Shown one piece after another: positions 1 through 11,900 of a stretch of 11,900 bases of DNA. Made by a program: the position numbers and the translations under genes. A model generated the notes under the pieces. The model saw nothing but the letters and a program-made list of their open reading frames with translations, had not been told where the DNA came from and made no database searches. Every line of letters starts with the position of its first letter. The stretch's first letter is position 1. The DNA comes from a virus, in the UHGV virus genome UHGV-0199485; one strand, written 5' to 3'.

Positions 1-1524
1 ATGAAACGTGTAATCAGCTACATCAGATTCAGTTCTGAGCGACAAGCCAAAGGCGACTCACTACGCAGACAGTCTAAGATGGTTAATGACTGGCTTAAGG
101 CTCATCCTGAGTACTACCTTGACCAAGATTTATCTTTTCGTGATTTAGGTGTGAGTGGATTCACTGGTAAGCACTTGAAAGGTGGCTTAGGTGACTTTTT
201 AACCGCTATCGAGAAAGGGCTTGTTAAAGCTGGTGATACGCTCTTGATAGAATCTCTTGACCGTCTCTCACGTCAGGATATTGATATTGCTTCTGAGCTA
301 TTACGTCGTATCTTAAGGGCTGGTGTCGATATAGTCACACTGAGCGATGGTGAACATTACACACGAGAAAGTTTAAAAGACCCGTTAGCTCTGATTAAGT
401 CCATCTTGATTATGCAAAGAGCACATGAAGAGAGTCTGCGTAAGGCTGAGCGTATACAAGCTGCATGGGATGCAAAGAAAGAAGCTGCTAAAGCTGGTAT
501 CAAGATTTCTAAGCGTTGTCCTGCATGGCTTAAGCTTAATGATGACCGTAAGACCTTCTCTGTGATACCTGAGAAGGTAGAAACTGTGAGGAGATGCTTT
601 CAATTACGGTTAGAGGGTAAGTCTATTTGGGAGATTGTCAGGGCTCTTAATGATGAAGGTCACCAGACACTTAACCAGTACAAAGCAGGTAAGTTTGGTC
701 AAACCTCAGTGCAAGACCTTCTGAAAAATCGCTCTGTAATTGGTTACTTCACACCTAAAGGCTGTGAGGAGATAGCTGGTTATTTCCCCCCTATCATCCC
801 TGAGACTGATTTCTACAAAGTCCAGCAACTATCATATTCTCGTTACGGTAGAAAACCTGCTTCAGATAAACCATTGAGTGTGAATCTCTTTAAAGGTGTT
901 ATCCGTTGTTCTGAATGTGGTCATGCTTTGATTATCACAGGCTTTAGCGATACAAGAAACGGGATTTATCGTTGTCCTCTTCGTAATGAAAACCGTTGTA
1001 GTGCTAAAGGACTTTCACGTAAGCAAACCGATGGTACATTGCTTGCCCTGCTATCCCGTATAGACCGATTTGATAGCGATATGACGAATACCATAGACAC
1101 ACTGAAGCTACACCGTGAACACATCTCAAGCAATATTGAAAAGCTGGTACAGCTATCACTTGAAATTGAAGACTTGTCCGCTATTACCAGCAAACTAAAA
1201 CAGTTAAAAGGTGAGCTATCACAGGTTAATGCGGATATCGAGAAGGAGACACAACGCCTTAAATCTATTGATGTTGGTTGTTTGTCTGATTGTGACTTGA
1301 CTACAAAGGCGGGAAGGATTGAAGCACAACTGATAATCAAAAGTGCTGTTAAAGAGGTCATTTTAAATACTGCTAAACGTCGCTGTAAAGTGACTTTTCA
1401 CAACGGTAAGGTAATTGACTTACCTATAACAGAAGACCCCTCAGAGAATGTTACAGAGGCTATACAGTCGCTTTCTGAAGTCACTGAGAGGGGTTTAATA
1501 GATGTTGATGAGGTTATCATATAG
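1..1524 (+). CDS. Large serine recombinase (integrase-type)
   Basis: 507-aa ORF starting at window base 1. N-terminus MKRVISYIRFSSERQ places the resolvase-fold catalytic serine about 10 residues from the start. A long C-terminal extension follows, with Cys pairs (CSECGH ... YRCPLRNENRC, zinc-ribbon-like) and a coiled-coil tail, which is the large serine recombinase architecture. RBS and promoter lie outside the window. Confidence 0.85.
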   Translation: MKRVISYIRFSSERQAKGDSLRRQSKMVNDWLKAHPEYYLDQDLSFRDLGVSGFTGKHLKGGLGDFLTAIEKGLVKAGDTLLIESLDRLSRQDIDIASELLRRILRAGVDIVTLSDGEHYTRESLKDPLALIKSILIMQRAHEESLRKAERIQAAWDAKKEAAKAGIKISKRCPAWLKLNDDRKTFSVIPEKVETVRRCFQLRLEGKSIWEIVRALNDEGHQTLNQYKAGKFGQTSVQDLLKNRSVIGYFTPKGCEEIAGYFPPIIPETDFYKVQQLSYSRYGRKPASDKPLSVNLFKGVIRCSECGHALIITGFSDTRNGIYRCPLRNENRCSAKGLSRKQTDGTLLALLSRIDRFDSDMTNTIDTLKLHREHISSNIEKLVQLSLEIEDLSAITSKLKQLKGELSQVNADIEKETQRLKSIDVGCLSDCDLTTKAGRIEAQLIIKSAVKEVILNTAKRRCKVTFHNGKVIDLPITEDPSENVTEAIQSLSEVTERGLIDVDEVII

Positions 1525-1538
1525 TTGAGCTTCTATCG

Positions 1539-2312
1539 TCAGTAGCGCTTGTTAGGATTAACAGACAGCCTCTTCAAAACATTACCTGCACCAGCATTAT
1601 TAAGCACTTTCGAAGCTTGCCCATTAGCGGCATCTGAGAAGGTGCTTTTTCCATTCTCAACTCTGACACTTTTACTACAATTGATACGGGCTTGAAGTTG
1701 CTCATTAGAAAGTTCACTCGCAGAGCGATTATATAGCTCCTGACACATCAACATACCATTACCTAAACTTGTCGTAGTGTTCCCAGTGTTCTTTTTACTG
1801 GTAGCACCACCATCATTCGTGGTAGCGGTCTTGCCAGTAGCAGATGAAATATCAGTTTGCCCTACAATGGCTTTGAAGTTAATTTCCTGAAAAGTTAACT
1901 GGATTCTCAGACCATTTGAAATACCAACATCTTTAGAGGCTTTAAAGCTCGTGATAATGGAATCATCAATTTTAATTCCGTCTTTACAGATGACTGAAAT
2001 AATCTGCTTCTGGTCACGCCAGCTTTCAAGAGTGTCGATGAAGTTTTCTACTAATTGCCCCTGACGAGTTAATAATAAGCTACCTTCATAGCCAACTACA
2101 ACGACACCACTAATAGTGATTGTTCTGGGTGCTCTTTGCACATTATCTGTGACGGTTTGCCCTGATTGCATGTTCTGTGTAGTAACCTGCATAGGGCTGT
2201 CAAATTCCATGTTTTCAGTAGCTGATAAGGTTAAGAAGGCATCTACATTGTCTCTTAAGTGGAAATAGATGCCGTCTTTGCCAGTGTAACGAAGCTGATT
2301 AGTGTAAATCAT
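1539..2312 (-). CDS. Putative phage tail protein directly downstream of the tape-measure gene (distal-tail-protein position)
   Basis: ORF track gives 264 aa from an in-frame TTG at 2333. The first ATG (2312-2310) is preceded by AAGGAG at 6-nt spacing, so a 257-aa product from 2312 is preferred. Beta-rich N-terminal half, then a Thr/Asn/Gly-rich linker. The functional call rests on gene order after the tape-measure gene, not on a recognised motif. Confidence 0.5.
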
Positions 2313-2388
2313 TAAATTCTCCTTTGATTTCAAAGACTTAGTGCATTTTAATCATTTTTAACCAAGCCTTTGATATTTAAGTGTTTTA

Positions 2389-2458
2389 TCTGTTAAGCGT
2401 GAGCTACGTGAAAAATAATTTTTGGTGGGTATATCTGTTCAGGAGATTTCACGTAGCA
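2389..2458. repeat. Copy A of a 70-bp conserved dyad element (candidate activator-dependent promoter or recombination-type site)
   Basis: tctgttaagcgtgag-CTACGTGAAA-33 bp-TTTCACGTAG-ca. 68/70 identical to copy B (4534-4603). The 10-bp inverted-repeat arms are at 2404-2413 and 2447-2456. It lies between the tape-measure stop (2470) and the start of the next leftward gene (2312). Confidence 0.8.
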
Positions 2459-2469
2459 TTCGACTATTA

Positions 2470-4518
2470 TCAATCATCTTCTGGGAATGATGAACTTAAT
2501 AGCGTAGCTTCTGCGTATTGGTCGTAGATATTACTGCTAAAGGTCATAAAGCTGGTTTCATCTGGTTTAATGGCAACTTCACCACCAAGTGAAACTTTCA
2601 CAGGCTCCTGAATACGTTTGCTCAAAGCACTAATTTCATCTCTCAGGCTTTGGATATCCGTATTCGTTAATGCCGCATCTTGTCTCATGGTGATTAATTC
2701 TGGATGCTGGAAGTTAGCAAGATTCATAGCTGCACTATTAAACCAACCTTTCACATCGTCCATAGTAAATACTGGCTTAAGTCCAGATTCTTTAGCTAAC
2801 TCTGGTAATTTAGCTTGTGCTTCCATTCGTTCAGGTGTAGAGGCTAATCTTTCATAACCTGCATAGAGAGCGCTACCAGCTAATAGCATATTCCCAAGAT
2901 TCAGTCTTGATGGTTTCCCATTCTTTCTATTCACGTTATCCGCTGTAGTATCAGCAACCTGACCTAATCTTGTGATAGCAGTCATAAGCCCGTAAATACT
3001 TCTGGTTACACCAACAACTTTATTTACAGCAATAACACCAGCCAAGACTTTTAAACTATTAATCAAGCCAGAACCTAAAGCATCAACAACTTTCTTTTGT
3101 TCATCGGTTAAACCACGGTAAGCTAATGTCACCTCATCGAAGAACGCTCTTACCCTGTAACTGATATCAGTCAGGCTATCCACACCACTTGACATATCAG
3201 TCATCAAGCTACCAAGAGATTCACCAAGACTTTTACCGCTTCCACCTAAACTGTTTAAAAGCGTTGTTAAGCTTCGTGTGAAATCTTGCAGACCATTTTC
3301 AGAACCTCTGAAAATATCCGTTAATGAATTGTTCCAAGTATTCTTTAAGTTCCCTAACATTGTCTGCGTAGAGTCCTGAATAGCTTTCCAGCCACCTCTT
3401 GAATTAATCTGTGAACCAAGTTCTTTAGCAAACTTAGGGAGTGCATCAGAGGCTTTAACATCACCATTTTTCATCTTATCGAAAAGCTGTTTTTCAGTCA
3501 GACCTAAAGCCTTTGCAAATGCCTGAGTAGCACCCGGTAAAGCTTCAGATAGTTGCCCCTTAAGCTCTTCAGCCATCACCTGACCCTTAGAAGCCATCTG
3601 CGATACTGCGGTTAATGCTCTTTGAATCTGCTCATCTGAACGACCCATTAAACGAGCATATCCAGTTAAGTTTTTAAATAACTCTTCTGCCCCTTCAAGA
3701 CCCATCGTGTTCTTTGCAGATGCACCAAATGAAGCAAATTGCGCCTGTGTTTCGGTTGTGTCCATACCAGTAATTTGAGTTAAATCTTGAATGAACTTTT
3801 TGACCTGTGTACTTTGGTCACCGAATACGAAATCAATACTTCTTTCCGATGATGCACGTTGAAGGCCAACTTCCATAATCTTCTGATAAGCGGATAGTAC
3901 AGCCTGAAAGCTGATAAATGCACCTGCTGTTTTAACTGCTGCTGAACTCAAACTATCAAGACTATTAGCTGCTTTGTCACCGTTAATGCTGGTGGATGTA
4001 TGACCTCTGGCTTTAGCAATTGCTTCTCGTACACTTGAATTTAGTTTAGCAAGGGCTTCATTGAATTTTGAATTATCCATTGACCCAGCTTTAGCAGATA
4101 GCCCGTAAAACTGAGATTTGATGTATTTCTGCAAAATAGGGTCAAAGCCTTTTAACTTGCTCATGTTAGCCTGATAAGCTGCTCTTACTGCTCTATCACC
4201 TGTAACCCTTCTTGGCCTCGATTGTCTTGGCGGATTAATAACGTCATTAACCTGACTTGTGAAACGGAAAGCTTTAGTATTTTTTGCTCTAGCTTCCAGA
4301 CGGTCAAAAGTCTTATTAATTTTTCCTTCCATTGACTTCAAAGAAGCCGTTAAATTGCTGTCAAGTTTCTTGGTATCGACCTTAAACGCCCTATTCAAAT
4401 TACGTTCAATTCTTTGTGCTGACTGCAAAGCTGCCTTTTCAACTCTTTGCAAGCCCTTAACAACGTTCTCGCTGAAGCCTAGCTCAACGATAAAACTATC
4501 AACTGTGAATTTGCTCAT
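2470..4518 (-). CDS. Phage tail tape measure protein
   Basis: 682-aa ORF. The central segment ...SDEQIQRALTAVSQMASKGQVMAEELKGQLSEALPGATQAFAKALGLTEKQLFDKMKNGDV... fits the conserved tape-measure domain pattern. Helical N-terminal region and Gly/Ser-rich stretches are also typical. GAGGTGA lies about 10 nt upstream of the ATG. Confidence 0.75.
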   Translation of the reverse strand: MSKFTVDSFIVELGFSENVVKGLQRVEKAALQSAQRIERNLNRAFKVDTKKLDSNLTASLKSMEGKINKTFDRLEARAKNTKAFRFTSQVNDVINPPRQSRPRRVTGDRAVRAAYQANMSKLKGFDPILQKYIKSQFYGLSAKAGSMDNSKFNEALAKLNSSVREAIAKARGHTSTSINGDKAANSLDSLSSAAVKTAGAFISFQAVLSAYQKIMEVGLQRASSERSIDFVFGDQSTQVKKFIQDLTQITGMDTTETQAQFASFGASAKNTMGLEGAEELFKNLTGYARLMGRSDEQIQRALTAVSQMASKGQVMAEELKGQLSEALPGATQAFAKALGLTEKQLFDKMKNGDVKASDALPKFAKELGSQINSRGGWKAIQDSTQTMLGNLKNTWNNSLTDIFRGSENGLQDFTRSLTTLLNSLGGSGKSLGESLGSLMTDMSSGVDSLTDISYRVRAFFDEVTLAYRGLTDEQKKVVDALGSGLINSLKVLAGVIAVNKVVGVTRSIYGLMTAITRLGQVADTTADNVNRKNGKPSRLNLGNMLLAGSALYAGYERLASTPERMEAQAKLPELAKESGLKPVFTMDDVKGWFNSAAMNLANFQHPELITMRQDAALTNTDIQSLRDEISALSKRIQEPVKVSLGGEVAIKPDETSFMTFSSNIYDQYAEATLLSSSFPEDD

Positions 4519-4533
4519 TGTTCATATTTCACC

Positions 4534-4603
4534 TCTGTTAAGCGTGAGCTACGTAAAAAATAATTTTTGGTGGGTATATCTGTTCAGAAGATTTCACGTA
4601 GCA
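4534..4603. repeat. Copy B of the 70-bp conserved dyad element
   Basis: Same sequence as copy A with two substitutions (left arm CTACGTAAAA; core CAGAAGA vs CAGGAGA). It ends 15 bp upstream of the tape-measure ATG and directly follows a terminator-like hairpin. Confidence 0.8.
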
Positions 4604-4610
4604 CACATAC

Positions 4611-4653
4611 AAAAAAGGGAGAAACTACCGAATAATATCGATAATCTCTCCCC
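4611..4653 (-). terminator. Candidate rho-independent terminator for the 234-aa/71-aa transcription unit
   Basis: On the minus strand a 6-bp GC-rich stem (4617-4622 pairing with 4647-4652, GGGAGA/TCTCCC) with a 24-nt loop is followed by U6 (complement of A6 at 4611-4616). It sits about 50 nt after the 71-aa gene stop. The large loop weakens the call. Confidence 0.45.
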
Positions 4654-4701
4654 GTGTTATAGATTCGATAGAACCTATCTCATACACCCAACCAATCTTT
4701 T

Positions 4702-4917
4702 TTAATGCCTGACAAGATAATGTAATTCCGTTTCACCTATGATTTGAGCATCAGAAGGGATACGGTCAATACACCATTTTGGAATCTTGCGTGTTTTTGG
4801 TTTGTGTGAGGTGATAATTTGATGTTTGGTTTTAATTCTTAAGGCTGGCTTAGTTTGTAACTTTAAGTTTTCACAAACAGACTTAATAGTTTCATAGCGT
4901 TCTGTTAAATCAATCAT
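4702..4917 (-). CDS. Hypothetical small basic protein (71 aa)
   Basis: GAGGTG lies 4-5 nt upstream of the ATG. A 22-nt gap after the preceding gene suggests co-transcription. Lys/Arg-rich; no recognisable motif. Confidence 0.45.
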   Translation of the reverse strand: MIDLTERYETIKSVCENLKLQTKPALRIKTKHQIITSHKPKTRKIPKWCIDRIPSDAQIIGETELHYLVRH

Positions 4918-4939
4918 TCATCACCTCACATATGCATAA

Positions 4940-5644
4940 TTAAACAGCCTTGCTAAATTCTCGTGGAACACTCAGAAAATCATTGAAGCTGATAATCTGT
5001 GCCAACTCTTGACGGTACTCCTTAGCCAGCGCTTGATGGTCACTAATCAGCTTAGCCAGTCTTGATTTCAGCAAATTAATCTCATTTTCTCTTGCTTTCA
5101 TCAGTTTCTCTTTGGCAATTTCTTCAAGCTCAGCTTGTGATTTATCAGCAACAATTAGAGACAGTTGATGTGGCGCTCTGATGGCCCTTTCCGTACGAAT
5201 AACCCTTTGACCTTCTGGTAAATCTGCAATCACTTTACCAATCTCTACAGGGTCATACCCCCAACCGTCACGGTCTAGTCGAGAGAAATAAGCATAAGAA
5301 TTGGTTTGAAGCTCCATCAAAATAGCCATTTCGTCGATTTCGTCTTCAAGCTTGGACTGAATTTTCTCGTAAACACTTCTCATTGCTTCTTGAGAGTCTT
5401 TAATAGCTTGGAAATATCGGCGTTGCAGCTTCAGTTTCAAATCAAGCTCACATTCCTCATTCATCGAAAAATCAATTTCAACTCTTGGAATCTCGAGTGG
5501 TTCTGGTGGAATATATGGACCTTTATTTACTTCGTGTGATTCCCGCCAAGCTCTATCAAAAGATTCACGCAAACTTAATTCGTGAATATCAAGTGCACTT
5601 GGTTTGTTTTCGATAATCATTTCATGTTCATCACGGATAGACAT
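4940..5644 (-). CDS. Hypothetical acidic, predicted helical/coiled-coil protein (234 aa)
   Basis: AGAGGA lies about 9 nt upstream of the ATG. Glu-rich, with a C-terminal heptad-like segment (ELEEIAKEKLMKARENEINLLKSRLAKLISDHQALAKEYRQELAQI). No catalytic motif recognised. Confidence 0.6.
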   Translation of the reverse strand: MSIRDEHEMIIENKPSALDIHELSLRESFDRAWRESHEVNKGPYIPPEPLEIPRVEIDFSMNEECELDLKLKLQRRYFQAIKDSQEAMRSVYEKIQSKLEDEIDEMAILMELQTNSYAYFSRLDRDGWGYDPVEIGKVIADLPEGQRVIRTERAIRAPHQLSLIVADKSQAELEEIAKEKLMKARENEINLLKSRLAKLISDHQALAKEYRQELAQIISFNDFLSVPREFSKAV

Positions 5645-5676
5645 TATTATTTTTCCTCTTCTAAGATAATTTATGT

Positions 5677-5762
5677 TTCAGTTTTTAAAAAGCACACCTG
5701 ACAGCCTACGAACTTAGAAGAGACTTAAAAGCGTTTGCCAAGTGTGCTTTTTAAAAACTGAA
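5677..5762. promoter_or_regulatory. Perfect 21-bp inverted repeat separated by 44 bp (hairpin or operator candidate)
   Basis: TTCAGTTTTTAAAAAGCACAC (5677-5697) and its exact reverse complement GTGTGCTTTTTAAAAACTGAA (5742-5762). It lies about 30 nt upstream of the 234-aa gene start codon, inside the predicted leader. Confidence 0.5.
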
Positions 5763-6010
5763 TAGCCCTAGATAATTTCTTATAAAGGGCCATTCATAAG
5801 GTGAAGAAATTAAAAGAACATCTAAAGGATTCAAATGAATGAACAAAGATTTTTGATATGGCCTATTTAGTGTGGGCTAAATAAGCCATGACGAAAAGCA
5901 TTGCACCTTTCAGAATAACTATCCCTAGATGTAGATGGAATTGTTGAAAGAAATAAGAGAGAATTGCTCTCCCTATAGACTTCGGATAGAAGACTATCCT
6001 CATATATACA

Positions 6011-6039
6011 ATTATGTCATGCTCAAGGTTATTTGTCAA
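6011..6039 (-). promoter_or_regulatory. Candidate sigma70-type promoter reading leftward toward the 234-aa gene
   Basis: Minus strand TTGACA (6039-6034), 17-bp spacer, CATAAT (6016-6011). Confidence 0.35.
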
Positions 6040-6140
6040 CAGCTTTTTAACAGATTGGTAACATCAATTCTTATTTACTGTGTTACCTGCCAAGCAACCA
6101 ACAAATAAACCCAAAACTGTCCATAATACAATTAACGTCA

Positions 6141-6464
6141 TTAGTGAACCCTCATAGAATCCGCAACCAAAATATTGTCAGCGTACAGGATTGTCACAGC
6201 ACCTTTCAGAAATTGCTCTGGGGAAATATCGTATTTGTTCGTTTGCTCGATAACAAGCCTTTTCATGCTTGAGTCGCTAACGGGAAACATAAAACGTGGT
6301 TCACCAGTTTCAATCCCCTGAATAAAATCTTCAATTGCTTCTGAGTTTTCAGCCATCAGTTTCAACAGCCTGTCAAAGTCAATTGACACACCGGAATCAG
6401 TGAAAGCCTGTACCATCATGGCGGTGTCGGTATCAATAAAAATCTGTAATGGAAAGTTGTTCAT
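6141..6464 (-). CDS. Hypothetical acidic protein (107 aa)
   Basis: AGAGGA lies about 9 nt upstream of the ATG. A 15-bp palindrome AGATAG-ttt-CTATCT (6483-6497) sits immediately upstream of the RBS. No recognisable motif. Confidence 0.55.
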   Translation of the reverse strand: MNNFPLQIFIDTDTAMMVQAFTDSGVSIDFDRLLKLMAENSEAIEDFIQGIETGEPRFMFPVSDSSMKRLVIEQTNKYDISPEQFLKGAVTILYADNILVADSMRVH

Positions 6465-6651
6465 TTCTTAAAATCCTCTATGAGATAGTTTCTATCTAAT
6501 CCTATAAAACACATCTCAGACCTGCCAAAATAGCCATTCTGAGGCCAATAACCATGCGGGTTACAGAGGGAGTTGCACTGGCTGGTAAGGTAATTTATCA
6601 AATTAAGGTGCAACTCTGCCTGTAAAGTGCATTCTACCGTTACTTAGATGG

Positions 6652-7077
6652 TTATTTTGAATTGTCTTTATTAATCAATGATTTAACGTAGAAATACTGC
6701 CTCCGTGAAATACCATATTTTTCTGTGATGTATCGCTGAGATTGACCAGCATTTATGGCCTGAGTGATATCATCACGGTTATAGCGGTTACCACGGGATT
6801 TATATTTGTCACCATCCACATCTTCTGATGTATTGAAGTCTTCAATCAGCTTAATTGCATCGTGAAGGTCATCTTCTGAGGCATAATCGAAGGTATGGAT
6901 AATCTCAAAATCACCAGTATCTGCTGGTGCATTCTTCCATCTGGAGAAGCGGGATTTTAATTGCTGGTGTGTGAAAGGTTCAGCATTACGAGTTAAATCT
7001 TTCCATGTTCCGCTATTCTCACGGACAAGGTGGCCTCTATGGCGATAAAACGCATGATAATCAAATGTGCATAGCAT
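6652..7077 (-). CDS. Putative transcriptional regulator with C-terminal helix-turn-helix (Mor/C-like or resolvase-HTH-like)
   Basis: C-terminal segment RDDITQAINAGQSQRYITEKYGISRRQYFYV fits a DNA-binding HTH. The start codon overlaps the stop of the upstream gene (TAATG, 7075-7079), implying translational coupling. Confidence 0.55.
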   Translation of the reverse strand: MLCTFDYHAFYRHRGHLVRENSGTWKDLTRNAEPFTHQQLKSRFSRWKNAPADTGDFEIIHTFDYASEDDLHDAIKLIEDFNTSEDVDGDKYKSRGNRYNRDDITQAINAGQSQRYITEKYGISRRQYFYVKSLINKDNSK

Positions 7078-7367
7078 TAAACCCCCAGCCTATCCGCTAA
7101 TTGATGGACCTTTGCGCTTAACACCTGAATCATTGAGCAACCTGCTACTGCGGACTGTGCTTTGAGTAGTTCCAGTTGGTCCGTTGTGATTCTGATGGCC
7201 TTAGAACCCTCTGCAACACCCTTAACATTATCAAAAGGGGTAAGGGTTACCGGCTCTTTTAGAAGCTCTCCAACAAGCGCCGTATGCTTCATATCAGGGT
7301 ATTTGGCTTTGATTGCTGCCAGTCGTTCAAATGCCTCTGGCAAAAGGCGCGTAACTGTGTGAGTCAT
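7077..7367 (-). CDS. Ribbon-helix-helix-type DNA-binding protein (96 aa)
   Basis: AAGGAG lies 8 nt upstream of the ATG. C-terminal half KAIRITTDQLELLKAQSAVAGCSMIQVLSAKVHQLAD fits the beta-strand / helix / G-x-S turn / helix pattern of RHH repressors; the N-terminal half is RHH-like but less canonical. First gene downstream of the leftward promoter. Confidence 0.5.
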   Translation of the reverse strand: MTHTVTRLLPEAFERLAAIKAKYPDMKHTALVGELLKEPVTLTPFDNVKGVAEGSKAIRITTDQLELLKAQSAVAGCSMIQVLSAKVHQLADRLGV

Positions 7368-7402
7368 TGTAAAATCTCCTTAAATCTCTTACTCATACTA
7401 CA

Positions 7403-7453
7403 ATCTTAACATTTATTTAACATGTTGTCAACATCTCATTTACATGATATTAT
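7403..7453. promoter_or_regulatory. Divergent back-to-back promoters sharing a 13-bp palindromic operator
   Basis: Leftward: TTGACA (7431-7426), 17 bp, TAAGAT (7408-7403). Rightward: TTGTCA (7425-7430), 17 bp, TATTAT (7448-7453). The two -35 hexamers overlap inside the palindrome ATGTTG-t-CAACAT (7422-7434). Confidence 0.5.
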
Positions 7454-7503
7454 GGTTATAGGGGCTGATACAGGTGCTGTTTCCTTTCACAAAAGGAAAA
7501 TTA

Positions 7504-7680
7504 ATGCATGATTTTTTCACAGCAATTATTGAATCTCATCGTTTTAGCTCGTTGGGCTTTGCGGTATTTATTGTGCTATTGGTGTTTTGCGTTATGAATC
7601 GAGTCATTACAAAAAAGACAAAGCTTACAATTCGACTTAAACTTCTTCGTGTTGAGATAGAGATTTCAGTAAATAAATAG
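7504..7680 (+). CDS. Small predicted membrane protein (58 aa)
   Basis: ATG at 7504 is preceded by AAGGA at 6-nt spacing; the ORF track starts at an in-frame GTG at 7474. One hydrophobic segment (LGFAVFIVLLVFCVM) is followed by a basic tail. It is the only gene downstream of the rightward promoter. Confidence 0.4.
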   Translation: MHDFFTAIIESHRFSSLGFAVFIVLLVFCVMNRVITKKTKLTIRLKLLRVEIEISVNK

Positions 7681-7689
7681 CTGGTGGCC

Positions 7690-7986
7690 TTACCGGCACT
7701 TTCCCTTGATAATATTGGTGGCCCTCAGATTACCGGGGTCACCGTCTTTTAATCGTAGCTGGTGGACTGAATCCCAGATATCATAATGATACAGCACTGC
7801 AAACCTCAAAGCGTCAATCTTTAAATCTGTCACACCATCAAAAAAGAAATAATTCTTTCCTTCCTTCTTCGGTCGAATCCGGTAAACCTCCCCATGAGTA
7901 TCTTTCAGAAGATGACCTTCACGAGAAATGCTGTAGCGCCTTAATAGATAATCTTTGTATCGTTTTTCACCGTTATATTCTCTCAT
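7690..7986 (-). CDS. Hypothetical 98-aa protein translationally coupled to the replication initiator (weak HNH-like motif)
   Basis: Its ATG overlaps the rep stop (ATGA, 7983-7986) and GGAGGT lies 5 nt upstream. C-terminal VHQLRLKDGDPGNLRATN loosely resembles an HNH-type motif but lacks the canonical residue pair, so a nuclease assignment is tentative. Confidence 0.5.
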   Translation of the reverse strand: MREYNGEKRYKDYLLRRYSISREGHLLKDTHGEVYRIRPKKEGKNYFFFDGVTDLKIDALRFAVLYHYDIWDSVHQLRLKDGDPGNLRATNIIKGKCR

Positions 7987-8897
7987 TGGATACCTCCACC
8001 TGCATAGTACATTTTAGGCTTAACCCTTTGCTTCTTATTTTCACTAACTACTTTCTTCTTTGGTGTGAAAGAAAAGTCATCATCGTCACCATCATCAAAG
8101 TCATCGAGGTCATTAACCTTGTTCTTTAGCTTCGCCATTTCAATGCGTGATTTAATCTCTGCTTTGCGTTGTGCTTTTTTAATAGCCTCTTCACGCTCTG
8201 ACTCTTCATCAAGGTAATCATCGAAGGGGTCCATCTCATCATCAGTGGCGGGGCACTGTGTGTTTTTATGGTCACTATCAACATTCACATCAGAGATTTT
8301 ATCCTCCTCTAAGTCAGATGTTTTAGAAGCCTCTTTAGTAGCTTCACTATCAAGGTCAGATTCATTCATAGAGAGAAAATCATTTAATTCATCCAAAGAA
8401 AGAAAGTCATCTTCTTTATTGTTATTAATAAGTTCTTTCTTGTTATTACTGTTATTATACGTGTCAAAGATTTTGACTGACTGAGTAAAAAATTTTGACT
8501 CAGTGGGTAAAGAATTTTGACTCAGTGGGTCATCTTTCTTGACTGACTGAGTAACTTTAGACTCCAGCTTTGCCTTTCTGGCTTCCTTAGCTGTAAGCTC
8601 TGTTAAAACTTCCGGTACTTCATCAAGTGAATAAACTTTAATAACACACTGATTGCTTGCAACGTTAGTTTTCTTGATTAAACCATGTGCCTCAAGTCGT
8701 TTCATACATGCAATCACGGATGTTCTTGTGATTCCAGCATACTGACCAAGATGAGCATATGAAGGGGTATAATATTGCCCCTTATCGTGATAAAACTTCT
8801 GTTCATTCAACATGACAGTGTAAATAATACGGTCGGCAGCTTTAACGCCATTAGTCATCTGATAAATACGGTCATCAAACATGTGGAATTTTTCCAT
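7983..8897 (-). CDS. Replication initiator protein (winged-helix, RepA_N-like N-terminal domain) with acidic C-terminal tail
   Basis: Preferred start is ATG 8897-8895 (MEKFHMFDD...), preceded by AAGGAAAA at 7-nt spacing; the ORF-track start at 8954 has no RBS. N-terminal ...DRIIYTVMLNEQKFYHDKGQYYTPSYAHLGQYAGITRTSVIACMKRLEAHGLIKK... resembles the DNA-binding domain of RepA_N-type initiators. Iterons and an AT-rich tract lie inside the coding sequence. The C-terminus is a poly-Asp/Glu tail (DDFDDGDDDDF). Confidence 0.6.
   Translation of the reverse strand: MEKFHMFDDRIYQMTNGVKAADRIIYTVMLNEQKFYHDKGQYYTPSYAHLGQYAGITRTSVIACMKRLEAHGLIKKTNVASNQCVIKVYSLDEVPEVLTELTAKEARKAKLESKVTQSVKKDDPLSQNSLPTESKFFTQSVKIFDTYNNSNNKKELINNNKEDDFLSLDELNDFLSMNESDLDSEATKEASKTSDLEEDKISDVNVDSDHKNTQCPATDDEMDPFDDYLDEESEREEAIKKAQRKAEIKSRIEMAKLKNKVNDLDDFDDGDDDDFSFTPKKKVVSENKKQRVKPKMYYAGGGIQ
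8471..8554. repeat. Four iterons at exact 22-bp spacing (candidate origin of replication inside the rep gene)
   Basis: TTTTGACTGACTGAGTAA (8471), TTTTGACTCAGTGGGTAA (8493), TTTTGACTCAGTGGGTCA (8515), TCTTGACTGACTGAGTAA (8537). An AT-rich tract (about 8395-8465) flanks them on the low-coordinate side. On the coding strand they encode a low-complexity linker. Confidence 0.55.
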
Positions 8898-9159
8898 TAT
8901 ATTTTCCTTTTTAAAAATAAAACAAAGAAAGGGCTGACCACGTATAGTGACCAACCCCAGAGGGAGTGAATTAATTAGAAGATGGACTGATAAAGGAACT
9001 CAGAAGCCTGAGCGATTACGCGAGTATTAACAGCAAAAGGAAAAGCCTTGATTGAATAAGAGGCCGTGAAAATCTGTCAATACCCTGACGCCTCCCAACG
9101 TTGTAACCTCTTAATGTTCTGAGTTCTTTTATCAGCCCATATAGAAACTATAACAGATG

Positions 9160-9214
9160 TGATTATAAATTGCAACAATTATTTCACAGAATAATTACTG
9201 TTTGATTATAAATT
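9160..9214. repeat. Two exact 12-bp direct repeats TGATTATAAATT in the non-coding control region
   Basis: Copies at 9160-9171 and 9203-9214; on the minus strand each contains TATAAT. Function unknown (operator or -10-like boxes facing the rep gene). Confidence 0.4.
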
Positions 9215-9763
9215 AAGCAATCAAGCTAAAGGGTATTGACAAAGGGCTTGACAAGATTTTACCCTTTTAAAAGATACTTAAAAGATTCCGTTAAACAGGG
9301 TTTTCTTTCTGGTTTCTTCTCTCTCTTAAAAGCCTTTTAAGAATCCTATATAGAAGCAGTAAGTCTCAAAAACTCTGTGGGATAATTTCTAAAACACATC
9401 TCTCAGACTTCACTAGACGCATTCTAAGCCCCTAAATCGGGTAACTCTGGCAATCACCTTAAGCACTCTGAAAATAGCTTCAAAACTCGCTACAGAGCTT
9501 CCTGTGAACTGGTCTATGAATAGCCTAAACTGGTTGATAGGTTTGATTAAAATCTGTACAGATAATATCCAGCCTCTAATTTTTTTATAAAATCGTATTA
9601 GTCCCTCTTCATTTCTCTTCCACCGAATTTTTCGAAAATATCACAAGGCAGTGTATAGCTGCTAAGTACCCGCCACACCAGCTATGTGACCCCCTTTGCA
9701 GAATTTTAAAATATCTATTGACTTTCTATGTGAACTGTTATAAAGACCGCTCCATCTCTTAGG

Positions 9764-9856
9764 CGTACCGATATAGCATACTAAAAAGGTATAGCTAACC
9801 CCCTGTAAAAACCATACCGATTAGCCTTGTAAAACACTTTATCGGTACGTTATACT
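9764..9856 (+). promoter_or_regulatory. Candidate recombinase promoter overlapped by symmetric TACCGAT motifs (possible res-like or autoregulatory site)
   Basis: TTGTAA (9827-9832), 18 bp, TATACT (9851-9856). Inverted repeat CGTACCGAT (9764-9772) / ATCGGTACG (9841-9849), plus a third TACCGAT at 9815-9821. Confidence 0.35.
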
Positions 9857-9891
9857 TAACTCATCAAATGAGTAAGGCAAATGAGTATATT

Positions 9892-10434
9892 ATGGCTAAC
9901 ATCGGTTATGTTCGAGTTTCAACAATCCAGCAGATTACAGACCGTCAACTTGAAGGGGTCGTACTGGATAAGGTATTTACTGATAAAGCATCTGGGAAGA
10001 ATACAGACCGTCCACAACTAAAGGCTATGCTCGATTATGTTCGTGAAGGTGACACTATCCATGTACACGACCTGTCACGTTTAGGGCGTTCTACCGTGGA
10101 TGTATTAACGCTGGTGGATAAACTTTCACAGAGAGGTATCAAGGTTCACTTTCACAAAGAAGGTCTGATAACTGGTGACGATAACCCCACGTCTAAGATG
10201 ATTCTCACAATCTTTTCAGCAGTGGCTGAAGCTGAACGTAAAATGATGCTTGAGCGTCAACGAGAAGGCTATGAAGCTGCTAAAGCTGCTGGTCGTGTAG
10301 TTGGAAGGGGTAACGGTAAAGCGATTGACAGAGAAGGTATTAAAGCTGCTCTTGCTGCTGGTAGTTCAATCGCTAAAGTAGCCGCTCAATTCAACGTTGC
10401 CAAGTCAACTGTACAGCGTATTAAAGCTGAATAA
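9892..10434 (+). CDS. Small serine recombinase (resolvase / DNA invertase family)
   Basis: N-terminus MANIGYVRVSTIQQ with the catalytic serine, a resolvase catalytic core (..DLSRLGRS..), a Gly-rich linker and a C-terminal HTH (SIAKVAAQFNVAKSTVQRIKAE). The ORF track starts 8 codons upstream at 9868; 9892 is preferred from the family N-terminal pattern and promoter position. Neither start has a strong RBS. Confidence 0.85.
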   Translation: MANIGYVRVSTIQQITDRQLEGVVLDKVFTDKASGKNTDRPQLKAMLDYVREGDTIHVHDLSRLGRSTVDVLTLVDKLSQRGIKVHFHKEGLITGDDNPTSKMILTIFSAVAEAERKMMLERQREGYEAAKAAGRVVGRGNGKAIDREGIKAALAAGSSIAKVAAQFNVAKSTVQRIKAE

Positions 10435-10460
10435 TTTCTCATCACCTATATAGATTCATG

Positions 10461-10484
10461 GCCTCCTTAATTGGGGGCTTTTTT
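10461..10484 (+). terminator. Rho-independent terminator after the small serine recombinase gene
   Basis: GCCTCC (10461-10466), loop TTAATT, GGGGGC (10473-10478) with one G-U pair, followed by T6 (10479-10484). It lies 27 nt after the stop codon. Confidence 0.6.
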
Positions 10485-10490
10485 GTATCC

Positions 10491-10582
10491 TCTAAGCGTG
10501 TACTACGTGATGATTCGGATAAGAATTATCCTCATAAAATCTCCTGAACACTTACCCACCCTCAGAAATAACTTTCACGTAG
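10491..10582. repeat. Copy C of the dyad element, with the core in opposite orientation and 29 bp longer
   Basis: Shares TAAGCGTG-nn-CTACGTGA (10493-10510) and TTTCACGTAG (10573-10582) with copies A/B. Its 62-bp core contains AAATCTCCTGAACAC-TTACCCACC, the reverse complement of the A/B core GGTGGGTATATCTGTTCAGGAGATTT. Confidence 0.7.
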
Positions 10583-10655
10583 GAAATCGTTAAGGGTTTT
10601 ATAGTTACACTATGTGACCAACTGCATGAATAGCGTTATATATCCCTGTATATAG

Positions 10656-10671
10656 CACTATATATATAGTG
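10656..10671. promoter_or_regulatory. Perfect 16-bp palindrome CACTATATATATAGTG (operator-like)
   Basis: Exact palindrome in the intergenic region between element copy C and the 3' end of the 277-aa gene. A TATAGCA motif also recurs upstream of the recombinase (about 9771-9795). Confidence 0.3.
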
Positions 10672-10896
10672 TCTGGAGAGGAACGACTAACACGATACAG
10701 TTTACCCTGAAAAGAGACTTCACAGATTCTTTATATATTTCAATGAGTTAGGATAAAAAGGGACTATACCGATACTGCATAGAATCTGTGTAAAACTGCT
10801 TAGATATTTGAAGAAATACCGTTAAATTGCATAGTCATAGGGGTTGGAACAAGCCCAACTACACCTGTTTATGTCCTGTTATTTACAGGCATAGCA

Positions 10897-11730
10897 TTAT
10901 TGGTTAATTAATTCATTCGACTCTATATTATTACCTTTTTCTTTTTCCTTTTTAATTTTAGACTCAACCATATCTAACATTTTTAATGCCTGTGTTGAAG
11001 TTAGCTCTTTCTTTTGTCGTAGCGCGTTACGTATGGTAGAAGCTTCAATATCAGAAACTGTTAAAAGTTCTTCTACCCTACTCTTCAATTGCTGTAATGA
11101 ACGGCTATTATCAACTTTAAAGAAATCATTCATTACATCAAGTGAGGCAACAATCAAATCCTGTAGTCTCTCTTTTTCTTTTGCTATATTTTCAATAGTT
11201 TGTTTTTCAATAGATACTGACTCTTTTAAGTTGCTAATCTCTTTAAGCATCTGTTTCCTTGCTGTCTCAAGGTCTTCTGTGACCAACTCTTCACGCTTAC
11301 CACGCTCTACTTCCGCTTTAATATCAGCATCAATTTTAGCATTTTCTTTCTCTTCTTCTCTGGCAACCCGAACCTTTAACCCCGTTAACCTGATTGAATT
11401 AAGGTATTCCTTTTCTTTTGAAAGATAAATATTTTCACTGTGTTTATCTGTAGCCCATTTTTGAGCAAGAGAAAGTAACCATTGAGCATAAGGAGTAATA
11501 ACAGCTAGCACACTTCCAAAAAAGACAGGTGCTAACAGATAATGTACATAAAAATATTCCTGAGACAGAATATAATCTATTCGAAACTTAACAGGAGCAT
11601 CACTCATAAAGAGCATTGCCAAGTTAGGCCAATTGAACCATACCCATGCAAGAATGATATATCCCCATAATGGGCTTTTAATCCTATCGTTTATTGCTTG
11701 CATAGTAGAATCTAACCATCCATCACTCAT
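10897..11730 (-). CDS. Membrane-anchored coiled-coil protein (277 aa), function unknown
   Basis: GAGGG lies 6 nt upstream of the ATG. Two N-terminal hydrophobic helices (WGYIILAWVWFNWPNLAMLF; VHYLLAPVFFGSVLAVITPYAQWLL) are followed by about 180 aa of Glu/Lys-rich heptad-like sequence. Confidence 0.6.
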   Translation of the reverse strand: MSDGWLDSTMQAINDRIKSPLWGYIILAWVWFNWPNLAMLFMSDAPVKFRIDYILSQEYFYVHYLLAPVFFGSVLAVITPYAQWLLSLAQKWATDKHSENIYLSKEKEYLNSIRLTGLKVRVAREEEKENAKIDADIKAEVERGKREELVTEDLETARKQMLKEISNLKESVSIEKQTIENIAKEKERLQDLIVASLDVMNDFFKVDNSRSLQQLKSRVEELLTVSDIEASTIRNALRQKKELTSTQALKMLDMVESKIKKEKEKGNNIESNELINQ

Positions 11731-11806
11731 AGCTAACCCTCGGAAATCTTATCTTTCTGTCTATCATAACCACAAGCATCACCTTTAGGAACCATCTGAA
11801 ACGGGA

Positions 11807-11854
11807 GGTGTATTTAGACCTTGCTAATCTTCATCAGACACGTTTAAATACACC
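11807..11854. other. 13-bp imperfect inverted repeat with 22-bp spacer upstream of the 277-aa gene
   Basis: GGTGTATTTAGAC (11807-11819) and GTTTAAATACACC (11842-11854), one mismatch. A possible -10 TATGAT (complement of 11763-11768) lies between it and the gene start. Confidence 0.3.
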
Positions 11855-11900
11855 ACCTAAAGCGATACAATCGCGCTATTAGTTTTTATGGTGGTAAAGA

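Follow-up and report, generated by a model that had tools for sequence, protein, structure and literature searches.

Variable defense hotspots of phage satellites and P2-like prophages have reportedly been described by Rousset et al. in 2022. The DefensePredictor systems DS-40 and DS-43, each a single protein, and the two-gene system DS-13 were validated in E. coli, and DS-43 is listed as a structural homologue of the Cas13b-associated membrane protein Csx28 (PMC13092281). Here, we analyzed a stretch of viral DNA of 11,900 nucleotides (UHGV virus genome UHGV-0199485; hereafter the window), focusing on the target gene at positions 10897-11730. Like DS-13, DS-40 and DS-43, its product is predicted to combine an N-terminal transmembrane part with a helical, coiled cytoplasmic body, with no enzymatic domain and a length within 220-310 aa, and it is encoded in accessory DNA of E. 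coli. Like SieA and SieB of phage P22, it would be a small, prophage-expressed inner-membrane protein encoded by a stand-alone gene on a temperate element (PMC10883804).

A conserved gene at the end of the window

The open reading frame proposed at 10897-11730 was recovered with exact coordinates on the minus strand, with an ATG start and a length of 277 aa. Its parts are given below.

10897-11730, minus strand: coding sequence of the target gene (277 aa plus stop), encoding a predicted membrane-anchored coiled-coil protein (open reading frame list, homologues, purifying selection)
11737-11741, minus strand: Shine-Dalgarno sequence GAGGG, 6 nt 5' of the ATG (read from the sequence)
11446-11730, minus strand: codons 1-95, the conserved N-terminal membrane module of the target gene
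11119-11445, minus strand: codons 96-204, a charged long helix, predicted coiled coil (AF2, composition, periodicity, PDB hits)
10897-11118, minus strand: codons 205-277 plus stop, a small C-terminal region of three predicted helices (AF2)

Proteins 100% identical to the product were found on 449 public contigs, and close homologues (n = 179) were found in Enterobacterales (E. coli, Shigella, Citrobacter, Serratia, Klebsiella, Pantoea, Pectobacterium and others). When 1.84 billion cluster representatives were searched exhaustively with HMMER, 585 clusters (50% identity) reached E<=1e-3, most of them 220-380 aa in length and aligned from residue ~7 to ~180-200. A homologue search with the N-domain alignment returned 7 fragments, and a related-locus search with the close alignment returned only 4 genome loci and 3 viral loci. 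Across five E. coli alleles, dN/dS for the whole gene was 0.2-0.5, falling to 0.05-0.17 over codons 1-95; values of dN/dS >1 among E. coli alleles rest on <10 substitutions and do not demonstrate positive selection. We conclude that the target open reading frame is a real gene under purifying selection.

The sequence-only reading had described a single-gene unit near the edge of the element, and both descriptions were accurate: no same-strand open reading frame of at least 30 aa was present within 463 bp downstream, and the gene starts ~100 bp from the attachment-site crossover. A consensus scan for a sigma-70 promoter upstream of the target gene found none, which makes expression in the integrated state no more than presumed and counts against a role in defense.

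All database names for family members are 'hypothetical', and no mention of the protein accessions was found in the literature. As had been stated from the letters, the target protein carries no enzymatic motif, nor any other domain of Pfam, NCBIfam or PADLOC; against PADLOC-DB v2.0.0, it gave zero matches at E<=1. Among 52 diverse relatives, PADLOC returned only weak matches to LmuB, JetC and PD-Lambda-1 (best 1.4e-5), which we read as compositional coiled-coil noise, and Pfam returned only coiled-coil noise and one leucine-rich repeat (LRR) match. The only family profiles matched by the target protein using hmmscan were five PHROGs, all of 'unknown function': 13369 (E = 1.1e-15), 35327 (6.8e-11), 4780 (7.6e-11), 22645 (7e-6) and 8191 (5e-4), with the best match spanning the N-terminal membrane module at residues 9-93. 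The relationship to these PHROGs is one of true sequence homology; because the clusters carry no functional annotation, membership in them explains nothing about function. As judged from these searches, the target protein represents a widespread, uncharacterized family absent from Pfam, NCBIfam and PADLOC.

A predicted membrane hairpin and a long charged helix

Two N-terminal transmembrane helices had been proposed for the protein. This largely held as a prediction: segment 60-78, with a Kyte-Doolittle mean of 1.9, is a clear transmembrane segment and AF2 modeled a hairpin, but the hydrophobicity of the first segment was weaker. Segment 25-43 (IILAWVWFNWPNLAMLFMS) reached a Kyte-Doolittle value of only 1.34, under the classical transmembrane threshold, because it is rich in Trp. 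From 39 diverse N-terminal sequences, AF2 produced a confident helical hairpin (pLDDT 90.8, pTM 0.66) with helices at 20-32/34-42 and 60-99. The same model placed an amphipathic helix at 3-17 and a short loop helix at 47-55, with the long helix running from residue 60, and helix 20-42 is Trp-rich, carrying the motif WxWFNWPN and a kink at N33-W34-P35. Residues R16, P20, N33, W34, P68 and P80 were invariant in 52 diverse members that are 15-38% identical overall, and the short, predicted periplasmic loop was extremely conserved. On these alignments, the putative membrane hairpin is the most conserved part of the protein.

The long charged coiled coil was likewise confirmed as a prediction by the AF2 helix, composition, periodicity and PDB profile hits. 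In a full-length AF2 model built from 27 close sequences (pLDDT 70.5), one continuous helix extended over residues 60-204, with pLDDT ~80-90 over residues 101-220 and a low-confidence N-terminus. Residues 96-277 contain 28% Glu+Lys and no Trp or Pro, and their top hydrophobic periodicity was 3.5 residues, a modest signal. PDB profile matches of the family were coiled coils only, such as myosin and ATP synthase subunit b.

Three further helices (209-222, 225-238 and 245-272) were modeled in the C-terminal region (205-277), which is retained only in the close family; distant relatives carry other C-termini, and one family member ends in LRRs. LRRs are typical sensors. A helix-turn-helix (XRE/HigA-like) assignment for residues 205-277 was considered and rejected, with matches that were all sub-threshold (HigA, E = 0.22) and nothing relevant in the PDB profile search; the C-terminal region had no PDB or Pfam match.

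Of the remote-homology and structure-prediction searches that had been suggested, PDB profile searches with the N-domain, the C-domain and the whole family gave nothing beyond coiled coils, and Foldseek against the PDB with the full-length AF2 model gave no match. No fold match suggestive of a pore was found in the structure searches, which counts against a reading in which the protein perturbs the membrane.

A circular element that looks like a phage satellite

The window (1-11900) is a complete, circularized 11.9-kb element rather than a piece of something larger. It opens at the ATG of the integrase gene (position 1), its last 69 bases match the sequence just upstream of the integrase at the left junction (attL side) of integrated copies, and the match between the window and integrated islands stops at ~11831. 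The attachment site is the following feature.

11804-11857, no strand assigned: imperfect palindrome forming the attP site of the large serine recombinase and the boundary of the element, crossover near 11829-11832 (inverted repeat, attL match)

No other gene lies between the target gene and the attachment site, and the target and integrase genes diverge from either side of attP. Of 5426 complete E. coli genomes, 569 matched at least part of the window, and every element copy inspected was inserted in yecE, a DUF72 gene.

Besides the large serine recombinase, the element encodes a Dit-like protein, a tape measure protein, a DnaD_N/HTH replication-like protein and several unknown proteins; no lysis genes were found in the window. 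The Dit-like protein and its equivalent in the Felixounavirus phage ekra share 80% identity, and stretches of the element's Dit-like gene show 90-96% DNA identity to 212 phage records, mostly Felix-O1-like. The tape measure protein comprises 682 aa versus 735 aa in the phage and is 28% identical overall, with the first ~40 residues and the C-terminal end in common with the phage protein. From these sequence comparisons, the element looks like a satellite of Felix-O1-like lytic phages, and it might perhaps redirect tail assembly. No description of it was found in the literature, and the surrounding element may be more novel than the target gene itself.

Two further observations concern the element core. 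A non-coding block at ~10560-10890, which includes a small hairpin at 10875-10889, was conserved across the four element copies compared, irrespective of the flanking cargo; Rfam gave no match on the window, this block included, and candidate functions for the block are a packaging site, an origin and a small RNA. Small open reading frames lie at 7474-7680 (plus strand, 68 aa, with a hydrophobic stretch) and at 4702-4917 (minus strand, 71 aa).

The gene had been placed next to a recombinase and flip-element region. The recombinase is present: a small serine recombinase of the Resolvase+HTH_7 type (188 aa) is encoded at 9868-10434 on the plus strand, 463 bp from the target gene. The flip element did not stand up, as no convincing inverted-repeat pair bracketing a segment was found. 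Three inverted-repeat pairs with a spacing of ~1.9 kb lack mirror order and resemble chance matches, and an invertible promoter or flip element controlling the target gene was rejected, with no consistent inverted-repeat pair in the window. In other element copies, the presence of the small serine recombinase is not tied to that of the target gene.

The target gene is swappable cargo in a variable slot

Close alleles of the target gene were present in 46-49 of 5426 complete E. coli genomes, corresponding to ~9% of the element-matching genomes. Strain C311 has an empty slot, with the element ending ~90 bp past the conserved non-coding block. In YZLc1-3 (L026, 16141-17061), the slot instead holds an unrelated hypothetical protein of 306 aa on the opposite strand, WP_000658747.1, for which no Pfam or PADLOC match was obtained and which is another cargo candidate. 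Other element copies carry family members that are 44%, 38% or 34% identical to the target protein, such that four divergent allele lineages of the target family occupy the same slot; despite this extreme allelic divergence at the slot, the elements are otherwise 88-93% identical. The upstream cargo also varies between copies, being a Dam methylase, FRG/PDC-S15, an HNH protein or the small serine recombinase. The target gene is thus swappable cargo in a slot proximal to the attachment site.

Exchange also appears to reach into the gene itself. In the 44% identical allele P0301, residues 1-61 are 100% identical to the target protein and the remainder ~30% identical, with 98.4% DNA identity over the first 183 nt. 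Furthermore, among E. coli alleles, codons 151-200 of the window allele (11280-11130) showed a dS of ~0.45 versus ~0.17 for the whole gene. The mosaic structure of P0301, together with the raised dS in codons 151-200, points to recombinational exchange of cassettes, or segments, inside the gene.

In some diverged alleles, another reading frame overlaps the stop codon. These downstream open reading frames lie at 9833-10369 in L036 (178 aa), at 10818-11354 in L015 (178 aa) and at 10833-11111 in L013 (92 aa), and follow alleles that are 44%, 34% and 40% identical to the target protein, respectively. Within the element, an overlapping extra frame of 174-178 aa accompanies two slot-allele lineages. 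None of the three in L036, L015 and L013 had a Pfam or PADLOC match. Some lineages may thus consist of two genes; no partner of this kind accompanies the window allele.

Relatives reside on mobile DNA, often near defense genes

Co-localization with known defense genes or hotspots was found among ~15 loci inspected by hand and counted without a background statistic. The loci were as follows.

Klebsiella island: tyrosine integrase, AbiTii, resolvase and Shedu SduA_C, with the homologue as the last gene
Metagenome contig: large serine recombinase, then AbiTii, then the homologue
IMG/VR prophage: homologue convergent with PD-Lambda-4_A (PADLOC, 2020 bits)
E. coli ECONIH4: a 100%-identical copy adjoining a TPR protein and an FRG protein (PDC-S15)
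Rahnella P2-like prophage: homologue directly 3' of the CI repressor, co-oriented, at the prophage end
Klebsiella lambdoid phage ST11-VIM1phi8.2: homologue as an antisense moron between the replication and nin genes
Serratia lambdoid prophage: homologue in the replication/nin region, co-oriented
Klebsiella prophage: homologue adjoining the integrase at the prophage end
Ewingella and Serratia fonticola: DruM-like cytosine methylases near the homologue
Degraded Pectobacterium island, Citrobacter braakii island and Pectobacterium island: no recognizable defense neighbor

The prophage positions of the relatives are typical of protective genes expressed in the lysogen, and ten plasmid records also carry relatives. 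Small serine recombinases, which have been reported as markers of defense genes in a 2026 paper (PMC13552941), were found near family members in five inspected loci. In ECONIH4, the segment upstream of the target gene (L010, 9296-12891) contains ISLad2, a TPR protein, an FRG-domain protein (PADLOC candidate PDC-S15) and two hypotheticals, and may be a multi-gene defense candidate in its own right.

Proposed function and alternative explanations

As variable cargo at the end of the element, with relatives next to known anti-phage genes, the target gene is a reasonable anti-phage candidate. We tentatively propose an accessory inner-membrane protein whose likely role is to protect the carrier cell, and hence the element, against other phages, a proposal whose chance of being correct we place a little short of even. 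The sequence-only reading had offered superinfection exclusion, abortive infection or another anti-phage activity; of this, an accessory and probably anti-phage role is supported by context, whereas homology to PADLOC models, to SieA/SieB or to the validated membrane-plus-helical systems compared was not obtained.

We infer the topology, oligomerization, sensing and membrane damage of the target protein along the following lines. Judging from the conserved residues R16 and K18 ahead of helix 1, and K91 past helix 2, the N- and C-termini would both be cytoplasmic, with a two-helix hairpin enclosing a periplasmic loop of ~17 residues. The conserved hairpin may be the working or effector module, or a contact module, because a segment that did nothing but anchor the protein would not be its most constrained part. 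The long cytoplasmic helix would drive formation of a dimer or oligomer as a coiled coil, while the variable distal coil and C-terminal region could serve as the sensor or specificity part. A phage cue would be sensed by the cytoplasmic part; the membrane hairpins would then reorganize and perturb the inner membrane by depolarization or permeabilization, and this perturbation would abort the infection.

The main rival to abortive infection is exclusion at DNA entry, in which an inner-membrane protein blocks the entry of the incoming phage genome without killing the cell, by disturbing either the ejection or tape-measure channel or a host membrane factor on which DNA translocation depends. We consider this unlikely, though it accounts for several observations. 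The protein is a small membrane protein of temperate elements at lysogeny-side positions (after CI in the P2-like prophage and at prophage or island ends), and it is in such settings that Sie proteins, P22 SieA among them, are classically found (PMC10883804); extreme conservation of the loop would also be expected if the loop contacts a conserved host or phage component. However, the protein has no homology to P22 SieA or SieB (hhalign probability <1%), and a cytoplasmic coiled coil of 110 residues has no obvious role in blocking entry. Moreover, the exchangeable parts, including the LRRs of one member, are predicted to be cytoplasmic, so that intracellular sensing fits better than recognition at the periplasmic face.

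Slightly more doubtful still is an accessory membrane protein with no part in defense, for example a toxin or addiction module that stabilizes the element, a modulator of the host membrane, or a conjugation or mobile-element factor. Several loci have no defense neighbor, relatives are found on the ten plasmid records, and the small frame (92 or 174-178 aa) overlapping the diverged alleles resembles a two-gene toxin-antidote layout. The window allele nevertheless lacks a partner frame, and the recurring neighbors are phage-defense genes rather than addiction or conjugation genes. The extreme allelic divergence at one fixed slot in elements that are 88-93% identical also speaks against this explanation. 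Such divergence at a fixed slot is typical of arms-race genes.

Helper interference had also been raised by the sequence-only reading and has lost ground. In the form of a satellite-specific factor for such interference or for the element life cycle, acting on a Felix-O1-like helper, for example on its lysis timing, tape-measure insertion or genome entry, to favor the satellite, it is improbable: it draws on the relationship of the Dit-like and tape-measure genes to Felixounavirus and on the four divergent lineages of one family in the same slot, but ~90% of the element-matching E. coli genomes have no detectable copy of the gene and some slots are empty, so the element can complete its life cycle without the gene. 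Family members are also common in prophages of the lambdoid and P2-like kinds and in tyrosine-integrase islands that show none of the element's tail genes in the stretches examined, with the homologue outside the lysis cassette in the lambdoid prophages inspected.

Returning to a protective role at the membrane, a bolder form of the proposal is possible, although we regard it as more doubtful than the protective role as such. The Trp-rich hairpin (R16, P20, N33-W34, P68, P80) may be a new, widespread effector module of a single-protein abortive-infection or exclusion family on mobile elements of Enterobacterales, whose cytoplasmic cassettes, LRRs included, would be swapped by recombination just after residue 61, and which would be the preferred slot cargo of an undescribed Felix-O1-like satellite. 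If so, the 585 clusters at 50% identity would constitute a new, compact (277 aa) and enzyme-free anti-phage family, and the constant hairpin with its swappable cytoplasmic cassettes would make separation of sensor and effector experimentally easy. The element would then be a fourth kind of E. coli satellite-like element with a defense hotspot. If the gene has no effect on phage, it remains an ordinary uncharacterized moron.

Comparison with known systems

The likeness to the validated single-protein and two-gene systems does not extend to homology. With the family profile, hhalign probabilities for DS-13B, DS-40 and DS-43 were 0.5%, 2.2% and 0.1%, respectively, and homology was rejected; unlike these systems, the target family has a specific Trp-rich WFNWPN hairpin. 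Homology to P22 SieA (hhalign probability 0.54%) and to SieB, the exclusion protein of the P22/lambda type (0.91%), was likewise rejected, and SieA (164 aa) and SieB (192 aa) are much shorter than the target protein (277 aa).

Two other membrane proteins were compared. ATP synthase subunit b, the second-best PDB profile match (E = 0.034, residues 88-173), also places a long charged helix after an N-terminal membrane anchor, but the likeness is one of coiled-coil composition only: subunit b has one transmembrane helix instead of a hairpin and an unrelated genomic context. A class II holin (two transmembrane segments, ~70-150 aa) was rejected, as the target protein has 277 aa with a cytoplasmic extension of 190 residues, and prophage homologues lie apart from holin and lysozyme genes.

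At the level of the element, the arrangement is like the hotspots of Rousset et al. in that a fixed slot on a small integrative element receives differing cargo, here ranging from empty through four allele lineages to the 306-aa gene. As far as could be told, the element belongs to none of the P4-like, PICI, cfPICI and PLE types; it uses a large serine recombinase, inserts in yecE and has tail genes related to those of Felix-O1-like phages. With membership in named families confined to PHROGs of unknown function, the target protein, by analogy, appears to resemble the small, non-enzymatic, membrane-anchored single-protein defenses.
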